Source: Deltaproteobacteria bacterium (GTDB taxonomy: Bacteria; UBA10199; SPLOWO2-01-44-7). From it: DNA of 64,000 nucleotides. This document shows positions 35,818-47,039 of this stretch, piece by piece. Made by a program: the position numbers and the translations under genes. The first letter of the stretch is position 1. Each line of letters begins with the position of its first letter. The notes under the pieces are model-generated. The model ran no database searches. It was not told where the DNA came from and saw only the letters and a list, made by a program, of their open reading frames with translations. The stretch is taken from assembly GCA_023265595.1 (NCBI GenBank), contig JAHFSU010000002.1, positions 21,105 through 85,104 on the forward strand, given 5' to 3'.

Positions 35818-38052
35818 TTAATGATCATAATTAATTATCGGGTTCAAGGGGAATTTTTCCTCTGCCAGCTCTGCTTCTATTTCCTCGGCAATACGTTGCT
35901 TTTCCAATGCAAGGAAGAAATCATCTGCACGGTGAACTTTTTGACTTTGCCTCGTTACGAAGGACCTAAGTTCATCAACGATAATCTTTAAGTATATTTC
36001 TATTTCTTTTCTTTTATCCTTTATCCCCATCCAACTCACAATAAACTTTAATTGATGTATTCTCTCCCCCGGGTGAATATTCACAATATGTGGAAACTGG
36101 CGGGCGGCAGTCGCCGCCTTCATCTGAATATCCAATGGGAGTTCAATACGCCGATCTTCCGAATCAAATCCGGGAAGGAGTTCCGAAATATGAAAATTGG
36201 CTGTCTTTGCCGCAAGGTGATCATCAGCCATGGCCTTTAAAATAGCCTCTTTTTCTTCTTCTAAAAAAGGGCTCTCAGTATGCGACAATCGCATCTTGAA
36301 ATATTCCTTCAAAATATAAGCGCTAAAGAGATAAGCACCCCGCTCCGCAAGAATAGACGAGCGATTCCCGGCTGGAAAAAACCCGCTCAAATTTTTGTAT
36401 CCATCCATGTTGTGAAAGATCTCATGAGCCAAAATCTGCAATCTTTCGTAAAAAGGTTTCAAAAAACCATTTTGAGGATTGGCGTACTCGACTTCTATAT
36501 TTTTAAAAAGCGCTCTCGCAAAGCCGGCCGCACCTTCTATTTTCAGCGTCGAATCCAGCGCCACCGTATCCACCGATTGAACCGCCAAATCATAAACAGG
36601 AACACCTCGGTAAGCAATTTCTTTTAAAACATCCAATTCACTTTCCAAAGGATTGTCGGAGCGGGGGTAGGCTTCGAACGGCACAACCAGACGTCCCTTT
36701 TTGAAGACATCGGCCCAATGAGCCGGCTCCGGCTTGGTCCAGAGAATATCATCGGGCAAAACTTTTTCGTGATAAAGATTTGCTGATTGGGCCAATAGAT
36801 CAGAGACGCCAAAAGGAATTTTGGCAGATTTAGCATCAAAAATATAATGGCCCATAAACATATTAAAGAAAAAATCATTCTGACATTGGTTCAGGGCGGA
36901 GCCGCCGCGTTCCAACTCCAACCGGATCGATTCAGAAATAGCGCTCAAAAAATCATTGCGGACTTTGTAGTTGTCGAGACGGCTCTCGGTTTCAAAGGCT
37001 CGTCGCGCAGCAACAAAAGGCTTTTTAATCTTATCCAACAGATCGGGGGTCCATTTATCTTTGTAGGCTTGTTGGAACATCGAAATAAGGGAATCGATCA
37101 TTGCAATTTCACCTTGAGTTTGTGTGAATCCCCTCACCCCCAACTCCACAAAAAAAGCGTACGATTTCAAAAAGTGCTGAACCCTCTCTTCAGAATTTTG
37201 CGCATTCCTCCCTTCTAAAAAAAGATTTTTGGAAAATTCGATAAGTTCTGGATCGTTCAATTTGGGCAAAACCTCCAAATATTCCGGAGAAAGGCCGCGC
37301 GCCATCAGGGCCGTTTTGTATTCTTCCCGATATTTTTGATGATATTCCCTTGCAACCTTTACGATCTCTTCTTCAGAAAATCGCGACCGGAAATATTGGT
37401 TCACTACGAGACCGTTTTTCCAATCTCCATCGTCAAAAAGCAAAACTTCTCCATCAAAACTTTTCAAAAACTGCAGGGTATTAGAATGACCCATTTCAAA
37501 CATTTCTTGCAGAGAAGGATTCTCTTTTTCTATGCGGTAGATCAAACCACGGGATTGGGAATTGAGATCGGGGGCCGCCAAAATAGAGAGCCGCCTGATT
37601 TCGGGCCGATCGGCTTGGGCCAGATATTCGGGATTTTCAAATGCGATTCGCTCAATAGCTTTGAGCCAATTTTTGAGAGATAAAAAGGCCGTCAAATCAG
37701 CGACAGGGGCCTCGTGCGATTTTTCATCATAACGAAAGACCCTTGCCTCCAGCTCTTTCAGATGGATCAACAATTCCGGAATACTTAAATTGCGGACTTG
37801 CGCCTCAAAGGCCTCGGCAGTGGCATAAAGCTGCGGGTATTTTACGGCAGGAGAATCCGGATGGATGAGATCGACAACGGAGCGGAAGGTATCGATATCT
37901 TTTTTGGCGTCATTGACTTTAGGTTGATGGGCAGTCGGATCCGGATCGGTCTTTTCTAAGGCTAAAGCGATTTGTTTTTCACAAAACGCTCTCGCTTTTT
38001 TACCGGATATTTCAAAAGGCATAAACAATGGCCCCCAAATAGTTATCGGCAC
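35818..38052 (-). CDS. Large hypothetical protein with a single HExxH motif (ILAHEIFHNMDGY…AERGAY); putative gluzincin-type metallopeptidase
   Basis: 744 aa with a GTG start. No signal peptide. An HExxH with a Glu ~20 aa downstream is the only recognisable feature. Confidence 0.5.
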   Translation of the reverse strand: MPITIWGPLFMPFEISGKKARAFCEKQIALALEKTDPDPTAHQPKVNDAKKDIDTFRSVVDLIHPDSPAVKYPQLYATAEAFEAQVRNLSIPELLIHLKELEARVFRYDEKSHEAPVADLTAFLSLKNWLKAIERIAFENPEYLAQADRPEIRRLSILAAPDLNSQSRGLIYRIEKENPSLQEMFEMGHSNTLQFLKSFDGEVLLFDDGDWKNGLVVNQYFRSRFSEEEIVKVAREYHQKYREEYKTALMARGLSPEYLEVLPKLNDPELIEFSKNLFLEGRNAQNSEERVQHFLKSYAFFVELGVRGFTQTQGEIAMIDSLISMFQQAYKDKWTPDLLDKIKKPFVAARRAFETESRLDNYKVRNDFLSAISESIRLELERGGSALNQCQNDFFFNMFMGHYIFDAKSAKIPFGVSDLLAQSANLYHEKVLPDDILWTKPEPAHWADVFKKGRLVVPFEAYPRSDNPLESELDVLKEIAYRGVPVYDLAVQSVDTVALDSTLKIEGAAGFARALFKNIEVEYANPQNGFLKPFYERLQILAHEIFHNMDGYKNLSGFFPAGNRSSILAERGAYLFSAYILKEYFKMRLSHTESPFLEEEKEAILKAMADDHLAAKTANFHISELLPGFDSEDRRIELPLDIQMKAATAARQFPHIVNIHPGERIHQLKFIVSWMGIKDKRKEIEIYLKIIVDELRSFVTRQSQKVHRADDFFLALEKQRIAEEIEAELAEEKFPLNPIINYDH

Positions 38053-38116
38053 TAAGGGGGCCGAAGTTGCGTGCCACCATTTCCAGAATCCGTCACTTAA
38101 ATTTTTCTTACTTTTT

Positions 38117-38146
38117 CCCCTCCCTTGATGGGAGGGGGAATTTTTG
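38117..38146. repeat. GC-rich hairpin (CCCCTCCC-TTGAT-GGGAGGGG) followed by T5; variant of the dispersed hairpin family
   Basis: Seen directly. Shares the CCCTTGATGG core with the 56484-56506 copy. Confidence 0.45.
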
Positions 38147-38165
38147 CTGACGAATTCTGGAAAAT

Positions 38166-38369
38166 CTACATTTCCAACCCGGCTTGTTTTAAAATGGATT
38201 TCAAAAGGCAGGGTCCGATAATTTTTTCACTATGGACAGGAACAGTAACCTTTCGTCCTGTTGCGGGATTTACAAAATGTTGATGGGAACCCATGGAATC
38301 ATAAAGATTAGCGGTAGATTTCTTTTCGATGCCCCACTTTTTCAATCGTGACGGTTTGAGAGGCATCAT
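38166..38369 (-). CDS. hicA: HicA-family toxin homologue (orphan; no hicB found)
   Basis: …SMGSHQHFVNPATGRKVTVPVHSEKIIGPCLLKSILKQAGL matches the HicA consensus (GSHh.F.hP…VtVP.H…gTLksIlKQAGL). Its N-terminus overlaps the 3' end of the RelE-like gene by ~60 nt in another frame. There is no room for hicB downstream. Confidence 0.5.
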   Translation of the reverse strand: MMPLKPSRLKKWGIEKKSTANLYDSMGSHQHFVNPATGRKVTVPVHSEKIIGPCLLKSILKQAGLEM

Positions 38370-38565
38370 CGATAAGATAAACAACACGATAATCACCCTG
38401 TCTGACACGCCAATATGCGTCCCCTTTCAATTTTTCTGCACCTGGCGGTCTTGGATCAAGGGTTAACTGACGGATTTTCATCACCAGTCGTTTTCGATCT
38501 TCTTTGGGGATTGGTTTGAAATCCTTTTCAGCACTTCTCTTGATGATAAGATTATAAGAGGCCAT
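38308..38565 (-). CDS. RelE/ParE-family type II toxin
   Basis: 85 aa with the C-terminal RelE-like block …YRVVYLIDDASQTVTIEKVGHRKEIY. Overlaps the upstream antitoxin by 14 nt. Confidence 0.7.
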   Translation of the reverse strand: MASYNLIIKRSAEKDFKPIPKEDRKRLVMKIRQLTLDPRPPGAEKLKGDAYWRVRQGDYRVVYLIDDASQTVTIEKVGHRKEIYR

Positions 38566-38782
38566 CTTTTTTCATCTGCCCGACAAAGGCCTCGAAGTCG
38601 CGTGTTTTTTCCTCTTTGCGAAGACGGATCGCTTCCAAATCAATGGCATCCTCACGAAGTGCCGCACGAACCGCCTCGTTGACAACTTCAGAAATGGAGC
38701 TGTCATTTTGCACCGCTTTCAACTTTAAAGCTTTATGAAGCTCCGGCTCCAAATAAACCGTAGCTCGCTTGGGATCGCCCAT
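38552..38782 (-). CDS. Ribbon-helix-helix (CopG/ParD-like) antitoxin
   Basis: 76 aa. N-terminal TVYLEPELHKALKLKAVQNDSSISEVVNEAVRAAL is an RHH β-α-α pattern. A palindromic ATAACGTTAT lies in its promoter (38808-38817). Confidence 0.6.
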   Translation of the reverse strand: MGDPKRATVYLEPELHKALKLKAVQNDSSISEVVNEAVRAALREDAIDLEAIRLRKEEKTRDFEAFVGQMKKDGLL

Positions 38783-38843
38783 AAAACCTCCTCATCGTTA
38801 AAGCATCATAACGTTATGACGTTAAAATGTCAAACGTGAAATG

Positions 38844-38925
38844 TGCTCCCGGCAGGATTTGAACCTGCAACCCTTTCGGGACGGCGTTCTAAGCGCCGCG
38901 CGTATGCCAATTCCGCCACAGGAGC
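38844..38925 (-). tRNA. tRNA-Leu (anticodon TAG), type II with a long variable arm
   Basis: Manual fold of the reverse complement. Acceptor GCTCCTG/CGGGAGC + A. Anticodon stem CGGCG/CGCCG with loop CTTAGAA. Variable arm CCCGAAAGGG. T-arm GCAGG-TTCAAAT-CCTGC. 82 nt. Confidence 0.85.
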
Positions 38926-38932
38926 AATCTCG

Positions 38933-40300
38933 CTATTCACCCAACGCCTCGAACGCCAGCGCGGCGCCCTTGATGCCGCCGTAAAAATTGCTTAAACGGA
39001 TTTTTTCGTTGGGGGAATGGTAATTGTCATCGGGAAGACCCAATCCCACCAAAATCATCGGCACTTTAAGGGCCTCCTGAAAAGAGGCGACGACCGGAAT
39101 GGAGGCCCCTTCCCGTTTGAAGACGATTTTTTTGCCAAAACCTTTTTCATAAGCGGCGGCCACCCGTTTCAAAAAGGGATGGTCCCGGTCGACATAAGCG
39201 GGAGGTGTTGCGGAATGAAGATGCACTGCAACCGACACCCCTTGCGGCAGAATCGCTTTTACGTAATTTTCAAACTTCTCCGCGATTTTTTTCGGATTTT
39301 GATTGGCCACCAAACGCATGCTGATTTTCGCGCGGACCTCGGCCGGAATGATCGTTTTGGCGCCGATGCCGGTATAGCCCCCCCAGATGCCGCAAATATC
39401 AAGGGTCGGGCGCGTCCAGTTATGTTCCAAAGGGGTAAACCCCTTCTCGCTCATTAACGTTGCCGCACCGATTTCTGCAGCGGTCTTTTTTGCATCGAAC
39501 GGGGCTTTTGCTATTTCATTTTTTTCCGCCGCCGTGAGAGGCAAAACATCATCATAAAAGCCGGGAATCAGCACTTTTTCATTCTCATCTTTGAGTCTTC
39601 CCAAAACCCAGCTCAATGCCTGTGCCGGATTGCGCACCATCCCTCCATACAAACCGGAGTGGAGATCCTGCGTAAATCCCTTGACCATAATTTCAAAATA
39701 GACAAGCCCTTTAAGCGAATACGAAACGGCCGGCGTTTCGGAATTGAGCCATGGCATGTCGGAGAGCATTACCGCATCGCATTTCAAAAAATCGGCGTGT
39801 TCTTCAACATATTTTGAAATGCCGTCGGAGCCGACCTCTTCTTCCCCTTCCAAAATCACCTTTATATTGATCGGCAATTTTCCGACCGTTTTCAAAAAGG
39901 CTTCAGTCGCAAAAAGAAAAGAGGAATATTGGGCTTTGTCGTCGGTGGCGCCGCGCGCGTAAAGATTACCGTCGCGCACGGTCGGTTCAAACGGAGGAGA
40001 GGCCCATTGATCAAGCGGGTCGGGGGGCTGCACGTCATAATGCCCGTAGATAAGAATCGTCGGCGCACCGGCGGCATGGAGCCAGTCGCCATAGACCAGA
40101 GGGTTTCCATCGATTTGCAACAGTCTGCAATTTTCCAAACCGATTGTTTTGAAATGATGCAACTCATAATCGGCCGCCTTCAACACCTCTCCCTTTTTGT
40201 CGGGTTGAGTGGAAATCGAAGGGATGCGAATCACCTTTTTAACTTCCTCCAAAAAATATTCCCGGTTTTTTTCAATGTATTCTAATATTCGGGATTCCAT
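38933..40300 (-). CDS. M20-family metallo-dipeptidase (ArgE/DapE/PepV superfamily)
   Basis: …YGHYDVQPPDPLDQW…ARGATDDKAQ… are the M20 metal-binding motifs. ~455 aa from the MESRIL start. Confidence 0.8.
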   Translation of the reverse strand: MESRILEYIEKNREYFLEEVKKVIRIPSISTQPDKKGEVLKAADYELHHFKTIGLENCRLLQIDGNPLVYGDWLHAAGAPTILIYGHYDVQPPDPLDQWASPPFEPTVRDGNLYARGATDDKAQYSSFLFATEAFLKTVGKLPINIKVILEGEEEVGSDGISKYVEEHADFLKCDAVMLSDMPWLNSETPAVSYSLKGLVYFEIMVKGFTQDLHSGLYGGMVRNPAQALSWVLGRLKDENEKVLIPGFYDDVLPLTAAEKNEIAKAPFDAKKTAAEIGAATLMSEKGFTPLEHNWTRPTLDICGIWGGYTGIGAKTIIPAEVRAKISMRLVANQNPKKIAEKFENYVKAILPQGVSVAVHLHSATPPAYVDRDHPFLKRVAAAYEKGFGKKIVFKREGASIPVVASFQEALKVPMILVGLGLPDDNYHSPNEKIRLSNFYGGIKGAALAFEALGE

Positions 40301-40311
40301 GAAGCCTCCAT

Positions 40312-40716
40312 TCAAACTAAAACAGTTTGGGCCCAAGAAGTAAATCGTTCCACTTTTTTTGCAAAATCATGGGCGGCGTCTTGCGTAAAACGACGGGGCT
40401 CATATTCAACAAGATTTTTCAAGTTGATAATTTCGATCAGCCGGTCTGCATTTCTTTTTGCTTCCGTCGAGGAAAGGGCTTGCAATAAAAGGTGGGCACA
40501 GTCCTGATGGGCTTTTCCGGAACTCCGTTTTCCCAGATACAATGTGGTAATGGCATCATTAAAACTAATACAAGCATGAATGCCATTAAGAAGAACAGCA
40601 TCCCATTCCCCGTCTTGCAGGCATATCAGCATCACATCAAAGAATTGTTTTCCTTTGTCCTGATAGTTTTTATATTCGTTTTTTTGGATGCTCTTCGTCG
40701 AAATTTGTTTTACCAT
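40312..40716 (-). CDS. HEPN-domain protein (putative toxin of a HEPN/MNT pair)
   Basis: 134 aa. R-x5-H motif (GKRSSGKAH). Overlaps the upstream MNT gene by 47 nt. Confidence 0.6.
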   Translation of the reverse strand: MVKQISTKSIQKNEYKNYQDKGKQFFDVMLICLQDGEWDAVLLNGIHACISFNDAITTLYLGKRSSGKAHQDCAHLLLQALSSTEAKRNADRLIEIINLKNLVEYEPRRFTQDAAHDFAKKVERFTSWAQTVLV

Positions 40717-41329
40717 CCGTGATAATCTCCGTCAGCATCTTTCCGTAAATGACTTTGCCCTCTTTCGCGATGTTGATAATTAAAGGATCTTTGGATTGCA
40801 ATCTCTTTAAAAAATCACCCGCATGCAGTGATTTGATATTCACAAAATTGCCGTAATAGCGGACAAAATCTTGAGCCATAGAATCGAATAGAGATTCATC
40901 TGTAGGCAAAGGATATTGATCCGCATACAGAAGAAGACAATCGAGATCGCTGGAAGCTGTTTCTTCCCCCCTTGCCGTACTGCCGAATAAAATAACGGAA
41001 ACAGGCTGTGGTTTTAGTTGTACAGCCAATTTGTCTCCTAAATCCGACAAAAGACCTCTTTCAAATGCAAGAAGAGGAAAAACCGCTTTTTGTACAAAAA
41101 TATGGTCTCGATTCAACTCGTAAAGGTGCGCTTTTCCCACTACTTTTTCAAAAAGAATGCCCTGCGTAACCAACTCTCTTAAAACATGACTCATTTTAAA
41201 GGTTGATGTTTTAGCCATAATGGCCAGTTGACGTCCTGTTACGCCCATGTTTTTCCCTGATAGAATTTTAAAAACGCGAATAAATATAGGGTCTCCCAAA
41301 AGTCGTTCAAGATGATTTGTTATATACAT
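40670..41329 (-). CDS. Minimal nucleotidyltransferase (MNT) with an N-terminal winged-HTH; putative antitoxin/regulator of the HEPN/MNT pair
   Basis: GSTARGEETASSDLDCLLL is the GSxARG…SDxD pol-β NTase signature. The N-terminal ~70 aa are HTH-like (ILSGKNMGVTGRQLAIMAKTS…). Confidence 0.75.
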   Translation of the reverse strand: MYITNHLERLLGDPIFIRVFKILSGKNMGVTGRQLAIMAKTSTFKMSHVLRELVTQGILFEKVVGKAHLYELNRDHIFVQKAVFPLLAFERGLLSDLGDKLAVQLKPQPVSVILFGSTARGEETASSDLDCLLLYADQYPLPTDESLFDSMAQDFVRYYGNFVNIKSLHAGDFLKRLQSKDPLIINIAKEGKVIYGKMLTEIITDGKTNFDEEHPKKRI

Positions 41330-44837: not shown

Positions 44838-45161
44838 TCAAGCTACTGCTTTGAAAAGAAGTTTGATTTTTAGGACCTTGAGAATTTCTAAAAAACTGGA
44901 AAATTCGGGATTACCGTTCTTCGACAAGGCGCGATAAAGAGTCATCCGACTTAAATGAGTCCGTTTGGCAACCTCGCCCATGCCACCGGCCGCTTCGGCG
45001 ACATTGCGAAGGGCTTTGAGAATCATTTTTTCATCCCCTTCTTCTAACACAACATTAAGATATCCTGCTGCAAGTTCCGGATCCTGTAAATCTTTGATTA
45101 AATATTCATGACGGCTAACACTTCTTTTATCTTCTTTCATAACTTTTTCTCCGATTGCCAA
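44838..45161 (-). CDS. HigA-family 'addiction module antidote' HTH protein (TIGR02684-like), orphan
   Basis: 107 aa; …AAGYLNVVLEEGDEKMILKALRNVAEAAGGMGEVAKRTHLSRMTLYRALSKNGNPEFSSFLEILKVLKIKL matches this family along its length. No RelE/HigB-like killer gene is adjacent. Confidence 0.65.
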   Translation of the reverse strand: MAIGEKVMKEDKRSVSRHEYLIKDLQDPELAAGYLNVVLEEGDEKMILKALRNVAEAAGGMGEVAKRTHLSRMTLYRALSKNGNPEFSSFLEILKVLKIKLLFKAVA

Positions 45162-45184: not shown

Positions 45185-46345
45185 TTACAACACTTCAACC
45201 GATTTTTTACAGGCCTCCAGATTTTTATGGGCTGTCTGCCAAGCAGCGACCTCCGGAAAAACGGAAACATTTTTGACATTTGCAAAGAGTTCCACAGCGG
45301 CTTGGCAGCCTTCCAATTGTAAAACTGTATCGGCTTGCATCAAAAGAGGGCGCGCTTTTTCGTCGAGACGGGTATAAACTTTTTGTAAAAGGTCATTCGC
45401 TTTTGGATTGGGAGAATAGTCGCGGAGAATATTTCGCAAATCATGGCCGATCGCAATGAGATCGGGATTCTTTTTATTTGACCCTTCGACAGGCTCAGGG
45501 TGAGCGGAACTCGGGGTCAAAATGACATCATATTGAGCCAGCTTCGGCTCCAGTTCTTTGTTTAATTTGGCCTCGGCCGCCTGCAAGGCATCCTCAATTT
45601 GTTTATAAAAGGGAGGCTTTAGTTCTTCCGAATTAAAAAGGGCTATGGCTTGTTTCAATTGTTGATAATTGTTGGTTTCTAAAAGTTTTTTGGCTTTGAC
45701 AAATTTTTCTTCAAGCTCCTTTGATGGCCCGTAGTTTTCCTCTTTTTTAAGGGCCTCTTGCAGTGTTGCGGTCATCTTGCCGGCCCGTTCATTGTCAGGC
45801 GATTTTCGTAAAATTGTTTTCAAGGCCAGCAGGGCTTGGGGTGCATCATCTGCTTCCAGAAAAGAGCGGATTTCATCTCCCCCGCTCTCTCCTTTTTTCC
45901 CATCCCCTTTTCCCTCTTCCACAAGGTGAGAGTGAGGCTCCGTAATATACATGAGAGATCGTTCTATTTTCTGCTGCAAAGGGTCCTGACGATTCAGAAT
46001 ATGATTTTGGGCGAGGTCCCAATATTGTTTTGCCTCTGCAAGACGATGCCATTGATAATAGCGAAGCCCATCGCGATAATATCGCGCCGCACGATGCCGC
46101 AATTCTTCCACCAATTCTTTTTTTTCCGCTTCTACCTCGGCAAACAAGGGATCAAAAAAATGGGAGAGGGAATAACTGTAAACGGCGCACCGCCATTCCA
46201 GCCTTTCCTTGTGTTTTCCGGCCAGAGAATAAAATTCGAGCCCCAAAGTTTTGGAGGCAGAGAGGCCCTCTCCCGCGACGAAACGTGGGCTCACAATAAC
46301 GAATAGGAGACTAAGACAAAGTGACCAGAAAACGTTTTTCGCCAT
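45185..46345 (-). CDS. Hypothetical secreted protein at the distal end of the Tad locus; contains an in-ORF copy of the GC-rich hairpin repeat (encoding LVEEGKGDGKK)
   Basis: Start chosen at MAKNVFWSLCLSLLFVIVSPRFVAGEG (signal peptide); the track ORF runs to 46504. Confidence 0.45.
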   Translation of the reverse strand: MAKNVFWSLCLSLLFVIVSPRFVAGEGLSASKTLGLEFYSLAGKHKERLEWRCAVYSYSLSHFFDPLFAEVEAEKKELVEELRHRAARYYRDGLRYYQWHRLAEAKQYWDLAQNHILNRQDPLQQKIERSLMYITEPHSHLVEEGKGDGKKGESGGDEIRSFLEADDAPQALLALKTILRKSPDNERAGKMTATLQEALKKEENYGPSKELEEKFVKAKKLLETNNYQQLKQAIALFNSEELKPPFYKQIEDALQAAEAKLNKELEPKLAQYDVILTPSSAHPEPVEGSNKKNPDLIAIGHDLRNILRDYSPNPKANDLLQKVYTRLDEKARPLLMQADTVLQLEGCQAAVELFANVKNVSVFPEVAAWQTAHKNLEACKKSVEVL

Positions 46346-47039
46346 AATGATTTTCCCAACAGCCGGTCGGATGAGGACTGTCATGGGACAAAACCGCCCT
46401 TGCCTCTTCGGCATCGGGGAAAATGTCCAAAACATGCCCATTTGCCGCCCCTTCTGAACTGGCCAAAATTTTGCCGCTTTCATCAAAACAATAAATTGCC
46501 CCAAGCCCTAGTTTTTTGAGGGATCCGATCCATTCAAAATGCTCCTCTTTTTTTGTTTCACCTTTTTTTTGCAGACGTATTTTTTCGTGCAGAAAAAACC
46601 AGCCCCCTAAACCTAAAAGGGGCGGAAGCAAAAGGGCAAGGCGCAAAAAGAGAAATGGGGGTGAGTCCGGCCGAAATTCCAAAACGACTTTTCCCAGCAT
46701 CTCTTTTTGATCGCTTAAAATAGGTTCTTCAAAAAAGTATTTCCCCTCACCCTTTCCCTCTTCCACAAGGGGAGAGGGAAAACCATAACGGGAAAAGGGG
46801 ACCAAAATTTTTTCCTGCGCATCCAAAATGACGGCATTTTCATTTTCCAAACGGAGCCGTGTCTCCATCTGGTTTTGAAGCGGGTATTGATTCAATGCGG
46901 CGATGTTTTTGACCAACAACCTCCCCTTTTCAAACTCTCTTTGTGAAAAATCGCCCTTCAAAAAATAGAGGGAGAGCCAAATGAAAAAGGCCCAGACCAA
47001 GCAAAATAGAATTACGGAAGTTTTGATATTTTTTTTCAC
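46311..47039 (-). CDS. Hypothetical membrane-anchored protein in the Tad locus; contains the hairpin-repeat-encoded LVEEGKGEGK peptide
   Basis: 242 aa with an N-terminal TM helix. No recognisable family. Confidence 0.4.
   Translation of the reverse strand: MKKNIKTSVILFCLVWAFFIWLSLYFLKGDFSQREFEKGRLLVKNIAALNQYPLQNQMETRLRLENENAVILDAQEKILVPFSRYGFPSPLVEEGKGEGKYFFEEPILSDQKEMLGKVVLEFRPDSPPFLFLRLALLLPPLLGLGGWFFLHEKIRLQKKGETKKEEHFEWIGSLKKLGLGAIYCFDESGKILASSEGAANGHVLDIFPDAEEARAVLSHDSPHPTGCWENHYGEKRFLVTLS

Follow-up and report, generated by a model that had tools for sequence, protein, structure and literature searches.

The three TA-type reading frames that lie beside a tRNA-Leu gene in the window (the whole 64,000-nucleotide stretch of DNA that was analysed) very probably do not form a three-gene system, but represent an ordinary and intact module of the relBE type and, directly beside it, a hicA pseudogene that is truncated at its 5' end and came from a Class 2 hicBA cassette. 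A preliminary description of this DNA had reported an RHH antitoxin gene, a RelE/ParE toxin gene and a hicA-like ORF whose first 20 or so codons overlap relE in a different frame, and all of this geometry was reproduced, with the three ORFs on the minus strand at the positions given there (Table 1). That description had left two readings side by side: hicA as a remnant, or a single RHH antitoxin controlling two unrelated toxins. The remnant reading was supported, as homology to hicA begins only at codon 24 of 70, no hicB was found in the window, the ORF has no ribosome-binding site, and it was skipped by public gene calls. The two-toxin reading was not supported, as the RHH protein is paired with RelE alone in four other contexts and has no HicB-like domain, and the hicA ORF is without helix 1 and strand 1.

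Table 1. Positions of features in and around the TA locus, in window coordinates
Feature	Position	Strand	Basis or remark
tRNA-Leu, anticodon TAG	38843..38925	-	ARAGORN; Rfam tRNA, 57 bits
Module promoter, TTGACA, 17-nt spacer, TATGAT	38805..38833	-	11/12 consensus positions
RHH antitoxin gene, 76 aa	38552..38782	-	RHH Pfam matches at residues 8-45 (below gathering scores); GAGGAGG Shine-Dalgarno
RelE/ParE-family toxin gene, 85 aa, full length	38308..38565	-	PF05016
HicA-like ORF, 80 aa from GTG	38166..38408	-	Internal ATGs at 38369, 38366 and 38294
Apparent N-terminal extension of the hicA ORF	38307..38408	-	+1-frame translation of the relE 3' end
Junction of relE cassette and hicA remnant	38304..38310	-	Alignment and blastn limits
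hicA remnant, residues 24-70 of a 70-aa HicA, with stop codon	38166..38306	-	Partial PF07927 match; identity to relatives
Nested 84-nt hairpin	38080..38163		Inverted repeats; 16-bp outer stem, 8-bp G/C-rich inner stem
734/744-aa ORF	35818-38052	-	744 aa from GTG 38052; 734 aa from ATG 38022 (public calls)

Layout and neighbourhood of the locus

The RHH and RelE/ParE reading frames share 14 nt. The hicA-like ORF overlaps relE in the +1 frame, by 101 nt if it is read from its GTG and by 62 or 59 nt (about 20 codons) if it is read from the first two internal ATGs. The 113 bp of DNA that had been described after the hicA ORF (38053..38165) were found when the next ORF was started at its GTG; with the ATG, which is the start chosen by the public gene calls, the spacer is 143 bp. 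The protein encoded by this next ORF matched no Pfam or NCBIfam family, and an exact-protein look-up found no record of it. A single homologue was found among 5.8 billion proteins, 33% identical, in a RIFCSPLOWO2 'Deltaproteobacteria' MAG, and its locus had no synteny in common with the window.

The TA cassette starts 10 nt from the 3' end of the tRNA-Leu gene. The module sits between an M20 peptidase gene and the 734-aa gene, beyond which tig, clpP, clpX and lon are encoded. No integrase or transposase was found among the neighbours examined (about 9 kb annotated on each side), and no convincing direct repeat of the tRNA 3' end, as a mark of an integrated island, was found in positions 37900-39100. 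The best match to the M20 peptidase among 185,579 species genomes was 51% identical, and the host lineage appears to be poorly sampled. Because no close relative of the host was found, as judged by the M20 peptidase (51%) and the 734-aa protein (33%), the ancestral state of the tRNA-Leu site is not observable.

Several TA-type genes were encoded within 7 kb: the RHH-relE pair, an MNT-like nucleotidyltransferase pair (40312-41329) and a HigA-like antidote (44838-45161). Clustered TA loci with solitary members have been reported (PMC10865869), and in this respect the region resembles a TA or defence island. Unlike such islands, the window genes lie between housekeeping genes (M20 peptidase; tig-clpP-clpX-lon) at the 3' end of a tRNA-Leu gene. 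In the MNT-like pair, on the minus strand, a 134-aa ORF without a Pfam or NCBIfam family match is overlapped by one of 219 aa, which combines an HTH-like region at the N-terminus with a nucleotidyltransferase domain of the Polbeta/MNT type (a weak MntA-like match). By its sequence, this looks like an MNT/HEPN-type (type VII-like) TA pair in which the second partner is not recognised by Pfam or NCBIfam. The HigA-like protein, also encoded on the minus strand, matched the 'dnstrm_HI1420' addiction-module antidote family (E=1e-18). Upstream of it there was no recognisable HI1419/HigB-type toxin gene; the ORF in that place (45185-46504, minus strand, 439 aa) had no Pfam or NCBIfam match.

The hicA stop codon is followed by a nested hairpin. 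Its minus-strand RNA was predicted to fold with -40.6 kcal/mol (z=-5.4). There was no U-tract on the minus strand, and the structure is terminator-like on the plus strand only; the relBE transcript may end at this hairpin. No further copies were found in the window or in the fetched loci. The only Rfam match was to RsaOG, at 27 against 50 bits, and was treated as a chance match below threshold. An integron attC site was also considered and rejected, as inspection of 38053-38170 found no flanking RYYYAAC or GTTRRRY core sites. No integron integrase was found among the neighbouring ORFs (about 9 kb annotated per side), which were housekeeping or TA genes.

The RHH-relE module

The RelE/ParE protein matched the ParE_toxin family (PF05016) over profile positions 2-89 of 89, with 46 bits against a cut-off of 23 (E=8e-12). 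There were 181 homologues, mostly of 85-87 aa, and several of these are called RelE or StbE by their source databases. A catalytic Arg/Tyr at the C-terminus is what sets a RelE-type mRNA interferase apart from a ParE that poisons gyrase. The C-terminal sequence GHRKEIYR was kept in the relatives, but the score for TIGR02385 was 20.9, under its cut-off of 27.9. The RHH protein was matched by five RHH Pfam families, all under their gathering scores, with Antitox_RHH the best (23 bits against 27.2), and it was also below the NCBIfam thresholds. Its gene is preceded by a GAGGAGG Shine-Dalgarno sequence.

A perfect 12-nt palindrome, CATAACGTTATG, was found at 38807-38818, where it overlaps the spacer and the -10 box of the module promoter, and this is likely to be the RHH operator. 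The block TTGACATTTTAACGTCATAACGTTAT was conserved in three related cassettes (L084, L085 and L086), where it continues as TTGACATTTTAACGTCATAACGTTAT(A/G)AT, and the conserved block TAACGTCATAACGTTAT contains a perfect 12-nt palindrome. Coding identity among the RHH-relE cassettes that share this promoter and operator block was only 65-79%. Conservation of the putative palindromic operator supports DNA binding by the RHH protein. In addition, the -35 hexamer is the exact point at which homology among five RHH-relE cassettes sets in, suggesting a mobile or conserved unit that would have the -35 box and the stop codon as its limits.

Four related cassettes (L084-L087) encoded RelE proteins 75-84% identical to that of the window. 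Their RHH proteins were 68-88% identical to the window's and, wherever complete, all were 76 aa long, which indicates that the RHH protein of the window has gained no extra domain able to handle HicA. A HicB-like RNase-H-fold domain was absent from it, and its match to the HicB Pfam family, which lay in the RHH portion of that family, was very weak (E=0.046). The four cassettes occupy four different contexts and are followed by unrelated, mostly convergent genes; none of the four had a hicA (tblastn). Judged from these alignments, the RHH-relE pair is a self-contained unit with the -35 box at one end and the relE stop codon at the other (38833..38308).

This unit is like known RelBE and ParDE type II modules in several ways: the antitoxin gene precedes the toxin gene and overlaps it, the antitoxin has a putative N-terminal RHH motif, and a putative palindromic operator lies across the promoter. 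Also alike are the 85-aa toxin, which matches the whole PF05016 profile and has the RelE-like C-terminal HRKEIYR, and the recurrence of a compact two-gene module in many contexts. Nothing essential differs, with the qualification that the RHH protein of the window falls below the Pfam and NCBIfam thresholds. By analogy with RelBE and ParDE, an RHH dimer would repress the promoter and its C-terminal tail would neutralise RelE, the activity of which would be ribosome-dependent mRNA cleavage.

The hicA remnant and its junction with relE

In the preliminary description, the hicA-like ORF agreed with its family throughout the conserved core, and its N-terminal codons overlapped relE. The match to HicA_toxin (PF07927) was indeed far above chance (E=6e-13), but it covered only profile positions 19-58 of 58, corresponding to ORF residues 39-78, so that this description holds for family membership and not for the extent of the match. 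The nearest database relatives were P0001 (70 aa, 71% identity) and P0002 (77 aa, 56% identity), and in both cases the BLASTP alignment started at ORF residue 27-29. The retained part was 83% identical in amino acid sequence to the HicA of locus L091. At the nucleotide level, the window was 76% identical to the locus that encodes P0001 (L002) over 129 nt (38300..38172), corresponding to hicA codons 26-68 (blastn).

The limits of the two homologous regions meet at the end of relE. Homology to the related relE cassettes L084-L087 ends at 38307-38310 (38302 for L087), and the relE stop codon TAA occupies 38310-38308. For the intact hicA genes of L002, L091 and L092, the alignment places the start of homology at about 38306, and blastn places it at 38300. 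In a joint alignment the window tracks the relE cassettes up to ...CGCTAA (...ATCTACCGCTAA), and from TCTTTATGATTCC on it tracks the hicA genes of L091, L002 and L092, with LYDS(M/K)GSHQHF aligned. In other words, no more than about 3 nt separate the relE stop codon from the start of hicA homology, which falls at codon 24 of 70. What is left of hicA encodes the end of strand 1, the GSH catalytic motif, strands 2-3 and helix 2.

Read in the +1 frame, the region that encodes the conserved C-terminus of RelE (...TIEKVGHRKEIYR and stop) gives residues 1-34 of the hicA ORF, and no similarity between these residues and HicA N-termini was found by Pfam or BLASTP. The same frame in the related relE genes encoded similar peptides and contained stop codons in three of the four. 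The sequence LKKWGIE in this N-terminal part was considered as a counterpart of the HicA sequence LKQNGFE and rejected as a coincidence, being offset by 6 residues and unaligned by Pfam and BLASTP. Its position is a further reason for the rejection, as it lies where the conserved 3' end of relE is read in the +1 frame, for which the related relE genes give similar peptides and stops. The long ORF is best taken as accidental, the +1 frame of the relE 3' end happening to be open here.

The retained part of the ORF was compared with HicA proteins of known structure by way of the intact relative P0001, residues 9-67 of which align with the solved structures 6G26, 4C26 and 1WHZ. The histidine of the GSH motif was kept in the window (GSHQHF, H42) and aligns with GS[A/H]HHF of 4C26 and 6G26. 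In B. pseudomallei HicA, the catalytic histidine of the G-S-H motif is His24. Helix 1 and nearly all of strand 1 were missing from the remnant. Alignment to the family, as the preliminary description had proposed, thus gave a divided answer: the catalytic histidine is retained and the N-terminus is not intact. AlphaFold2 models were made for P0001 and for the 67-aa ORF of the window with equally shallow, three-sequence alignments. P0001 was predicted with a pLDDT of 86 and a pTM of 0.70 in an alpha-beta-beta-beta-alpha topology, and the window ORF with a pLDDT of 63 and a pTM of 0.42, its first 25 residues at about 55 and strand 1 absent.

Signals for translation were searched for at the candidate starts 38408, 38369, 38366, 38345 and 38294, and no properly spaced, purine-rich Shine-Dalgarno sequence was found at any of them; GGAGG-type sequences were present at the RHH, clpX, clpP, M20 and 172-aa genes. 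Public gene calls passed over the hicA ORF on two contigs with an identical RelE; one of these (L001) matched the window at 100% identity over 1,010 bp, and the other matched at the level of the RelE protein. Loss of the catalytic histidine and lack of translational signals had both been named beforehand as marks of a pseudogene. The GSH motif is kept, and the second mark is present. Overall, the hicA ORF looks untranslated and unfoldable.

The 46 retained codons contained no stop codon and no frameshift, and the truncation of hicA may be recent. Nonsynonymous divergence of the remnant from its relatives (pN 0.13-0.19) was similar to that among intact genes; dN/dS is uninformative for this fragment, with synonymous sites saturated against every relative. 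At four positions where the five or six nearest relatives show no variation, the window has a different residue: M in place of K before GSH, G61E, G67C, and M in place of the terminal W. In a leave-one-out comparison over a wider set only G61E stood out, and the remnant was within the range of the intact genes. Since changes at conserved positions were in no clear excess, decay of the fragment is not demonstrated.

These open codons speak for a different reading, in which termination and reinitiation at ATG 38294, which lies 13 nt past the relE stop codon on the same mRNA, would yield a 42-aa C-terminal HicA peptide with a non-toxic role, such as a decoy for HicB-like proteins or RNA. This is highly improbable. 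In its favour, the fragment is free of stops and frameshifts and its nonsynonymous divergence is like that of intact genes, but recent truncation would also explain the 46 intact codons. The start has no Shine-Dalgarno sequence, the peptide would comprise only strands 2-3 and helix 2, so that half of the dsRBD-like fold would be missing, no second example was found, and there is no hicB in the window.

Origin of the remnant and the fate of hicB

The preliminary description had placed the missing hicB downstream, where it 'normally sits', and had argued that there was no room for it. The relatives give a different picture, beginning with the nearest, P0001 and P0002, both of which have hicB upstream. 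L002 and L003 each encode a HicB of 75-77 aa (PF15919) upstream of hicA, with a 4-nt overlap. In all, 79 HicA loci were collected, L002 and L003 together with 77 from a metagenome scan, and searched with HMMs built from these HicA and HicB sequences. An adjacent hicB was found in all 74 loci with enough flank, upstream in 44 and downstream in 30, and the remaining five loci, in which no hicB was found, were all cut by a contig end. In the 12 loci nearest to the window fragment a small hicB was always upstream. It follows that relE now occupies the very place in which the missing hicB would be expected, and the short spacer downstream is irrelevant. The best HicB-like match in the 64-kb window had an E value of 0.13, and no HicB-like sequence was recognised there.

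Small HicB proteins without a DNA-binding domain, encoded in reversed gene order, characterise Class 2 hicBA (Gerdes 2024, mBio, PMC10865869). The nearest relatives of the remnant (L002, L003 and L091-L095) fit this description, with their 75-77-aa HicB (PF15919) and the 4-nt overlap with hicA. The retained part of the window ORF is 71-83% identical to theirs in amino acid sequence and has kept the GSH catalytic motif. What distinguishes the window from Class 2 hicBA (PMC10865869) is that hicB and hicA codons 1-23 are gone and that the ORF runs into relE in another frame, which makes it a pseudogene fragment. On these similarities, the remnant is assigned to a Class 2 hicBA cassette.

Loss of hicB and of the first 23 hicA codons would have left the 3' two-thirds of hicA directly abutting the relE stop codon. 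There are two routes by which this could have come about: a deletion may have fused two neighbouring cassettes, or a relBE cassette may have replaced hicB together with the 5' part of hicA. Loss of hicB would be tolerable only if hicA was inactivated in the same event. This would explain why the fragment is without its start, helix 1 and most of strand 1, and either route, deletion or replacement, would fit the expectation that loss of an antitoxin survives only with its toxin disabled. The remnant is now probably carried as a 3' untranslated part of the relBE transcript.

A tripartite module, in which a chimeric HicA of 67-80 aa would be an active second toxin, neutralised and regulated by the single RHH antitoxin, is extremely unlikely. 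Such a module would be in keeping with the 80 open codons, with the intact catalytic histidine and C-terminal two-thirds of HicA, and with the location of relE and hicA in one transcription unit, with no terminator between them; the very weak match of the RHH protein to the RHH portion of HicB (E=0.046) could also be cited for it. However, the N-terminal 34 residues of the putative toxin are out-of-frame relE without similarity to HicA, in a frame that is closed in three of the four related cassettes, and the protein would be without helix 1 and strand 1 and its gene without a Shine-Dalgarno sequence. In all four related cassettes an RHH protein of the same length is paired with RelE alone, the RHH protein of the window lacks any RNase-H-fold domain like that of HicB, and a neighbouring HicB accompanies 74 of the 74 HicA relatives for which enough flank was present. 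These comparative data make the tripartite reading very unlikely. There is a very small chance that the locus encodes either a domesticated 42-aa peptide, which might for instance modulate HicB/HicA systems elsewhere in the genome or serve them as a decoy, or a chimeric second toxin of 67-80 aa under RHH control. It is scarcely credible that hicA is an active orphan restrained in trans by a hicB elsewhere in the genome, for although the hicB search covered 64 kb and solitary TA genes have been reported in TA-rich islands (PMC10865869), this orphan would face the same structural and translational problems as the tripartite module, lacking its first 23 codons and its start signal, and hicB is always adjacent in the relatives.

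Read as an intact relBE-type unit fused directly to a hicA fragment, the locus is an example of TA cassette turnover that is resolved to the base pair. The fusion fits the view that a toxin must be inactivated in the same step if its antitoxin gene is to be lost. The locus also illustrates a trap in annotation, as a long ORF with a significant Pfam toxin match can be a chimera of a pseudogene and an out-of-frame neighbour, and it shows that the position in which hicB is to be expected depends on the class of HicA. Beyond annotation hygiene the significance of the locus is small. Proof of expression and activity would make the remnant a rare instance of a reused toxin fragment, but nothing found here points in that direction.

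Inactivation of hicA was also seen in a different form among the metagenome contigs. In L156-L158 and L163-L165, hicA was split into two overlapping ORFs beside an intact upstream hicB. These splits are apparently frameshifts, and would represent independent inactivation of hicA inside otherwise complete hicBA cassettes.
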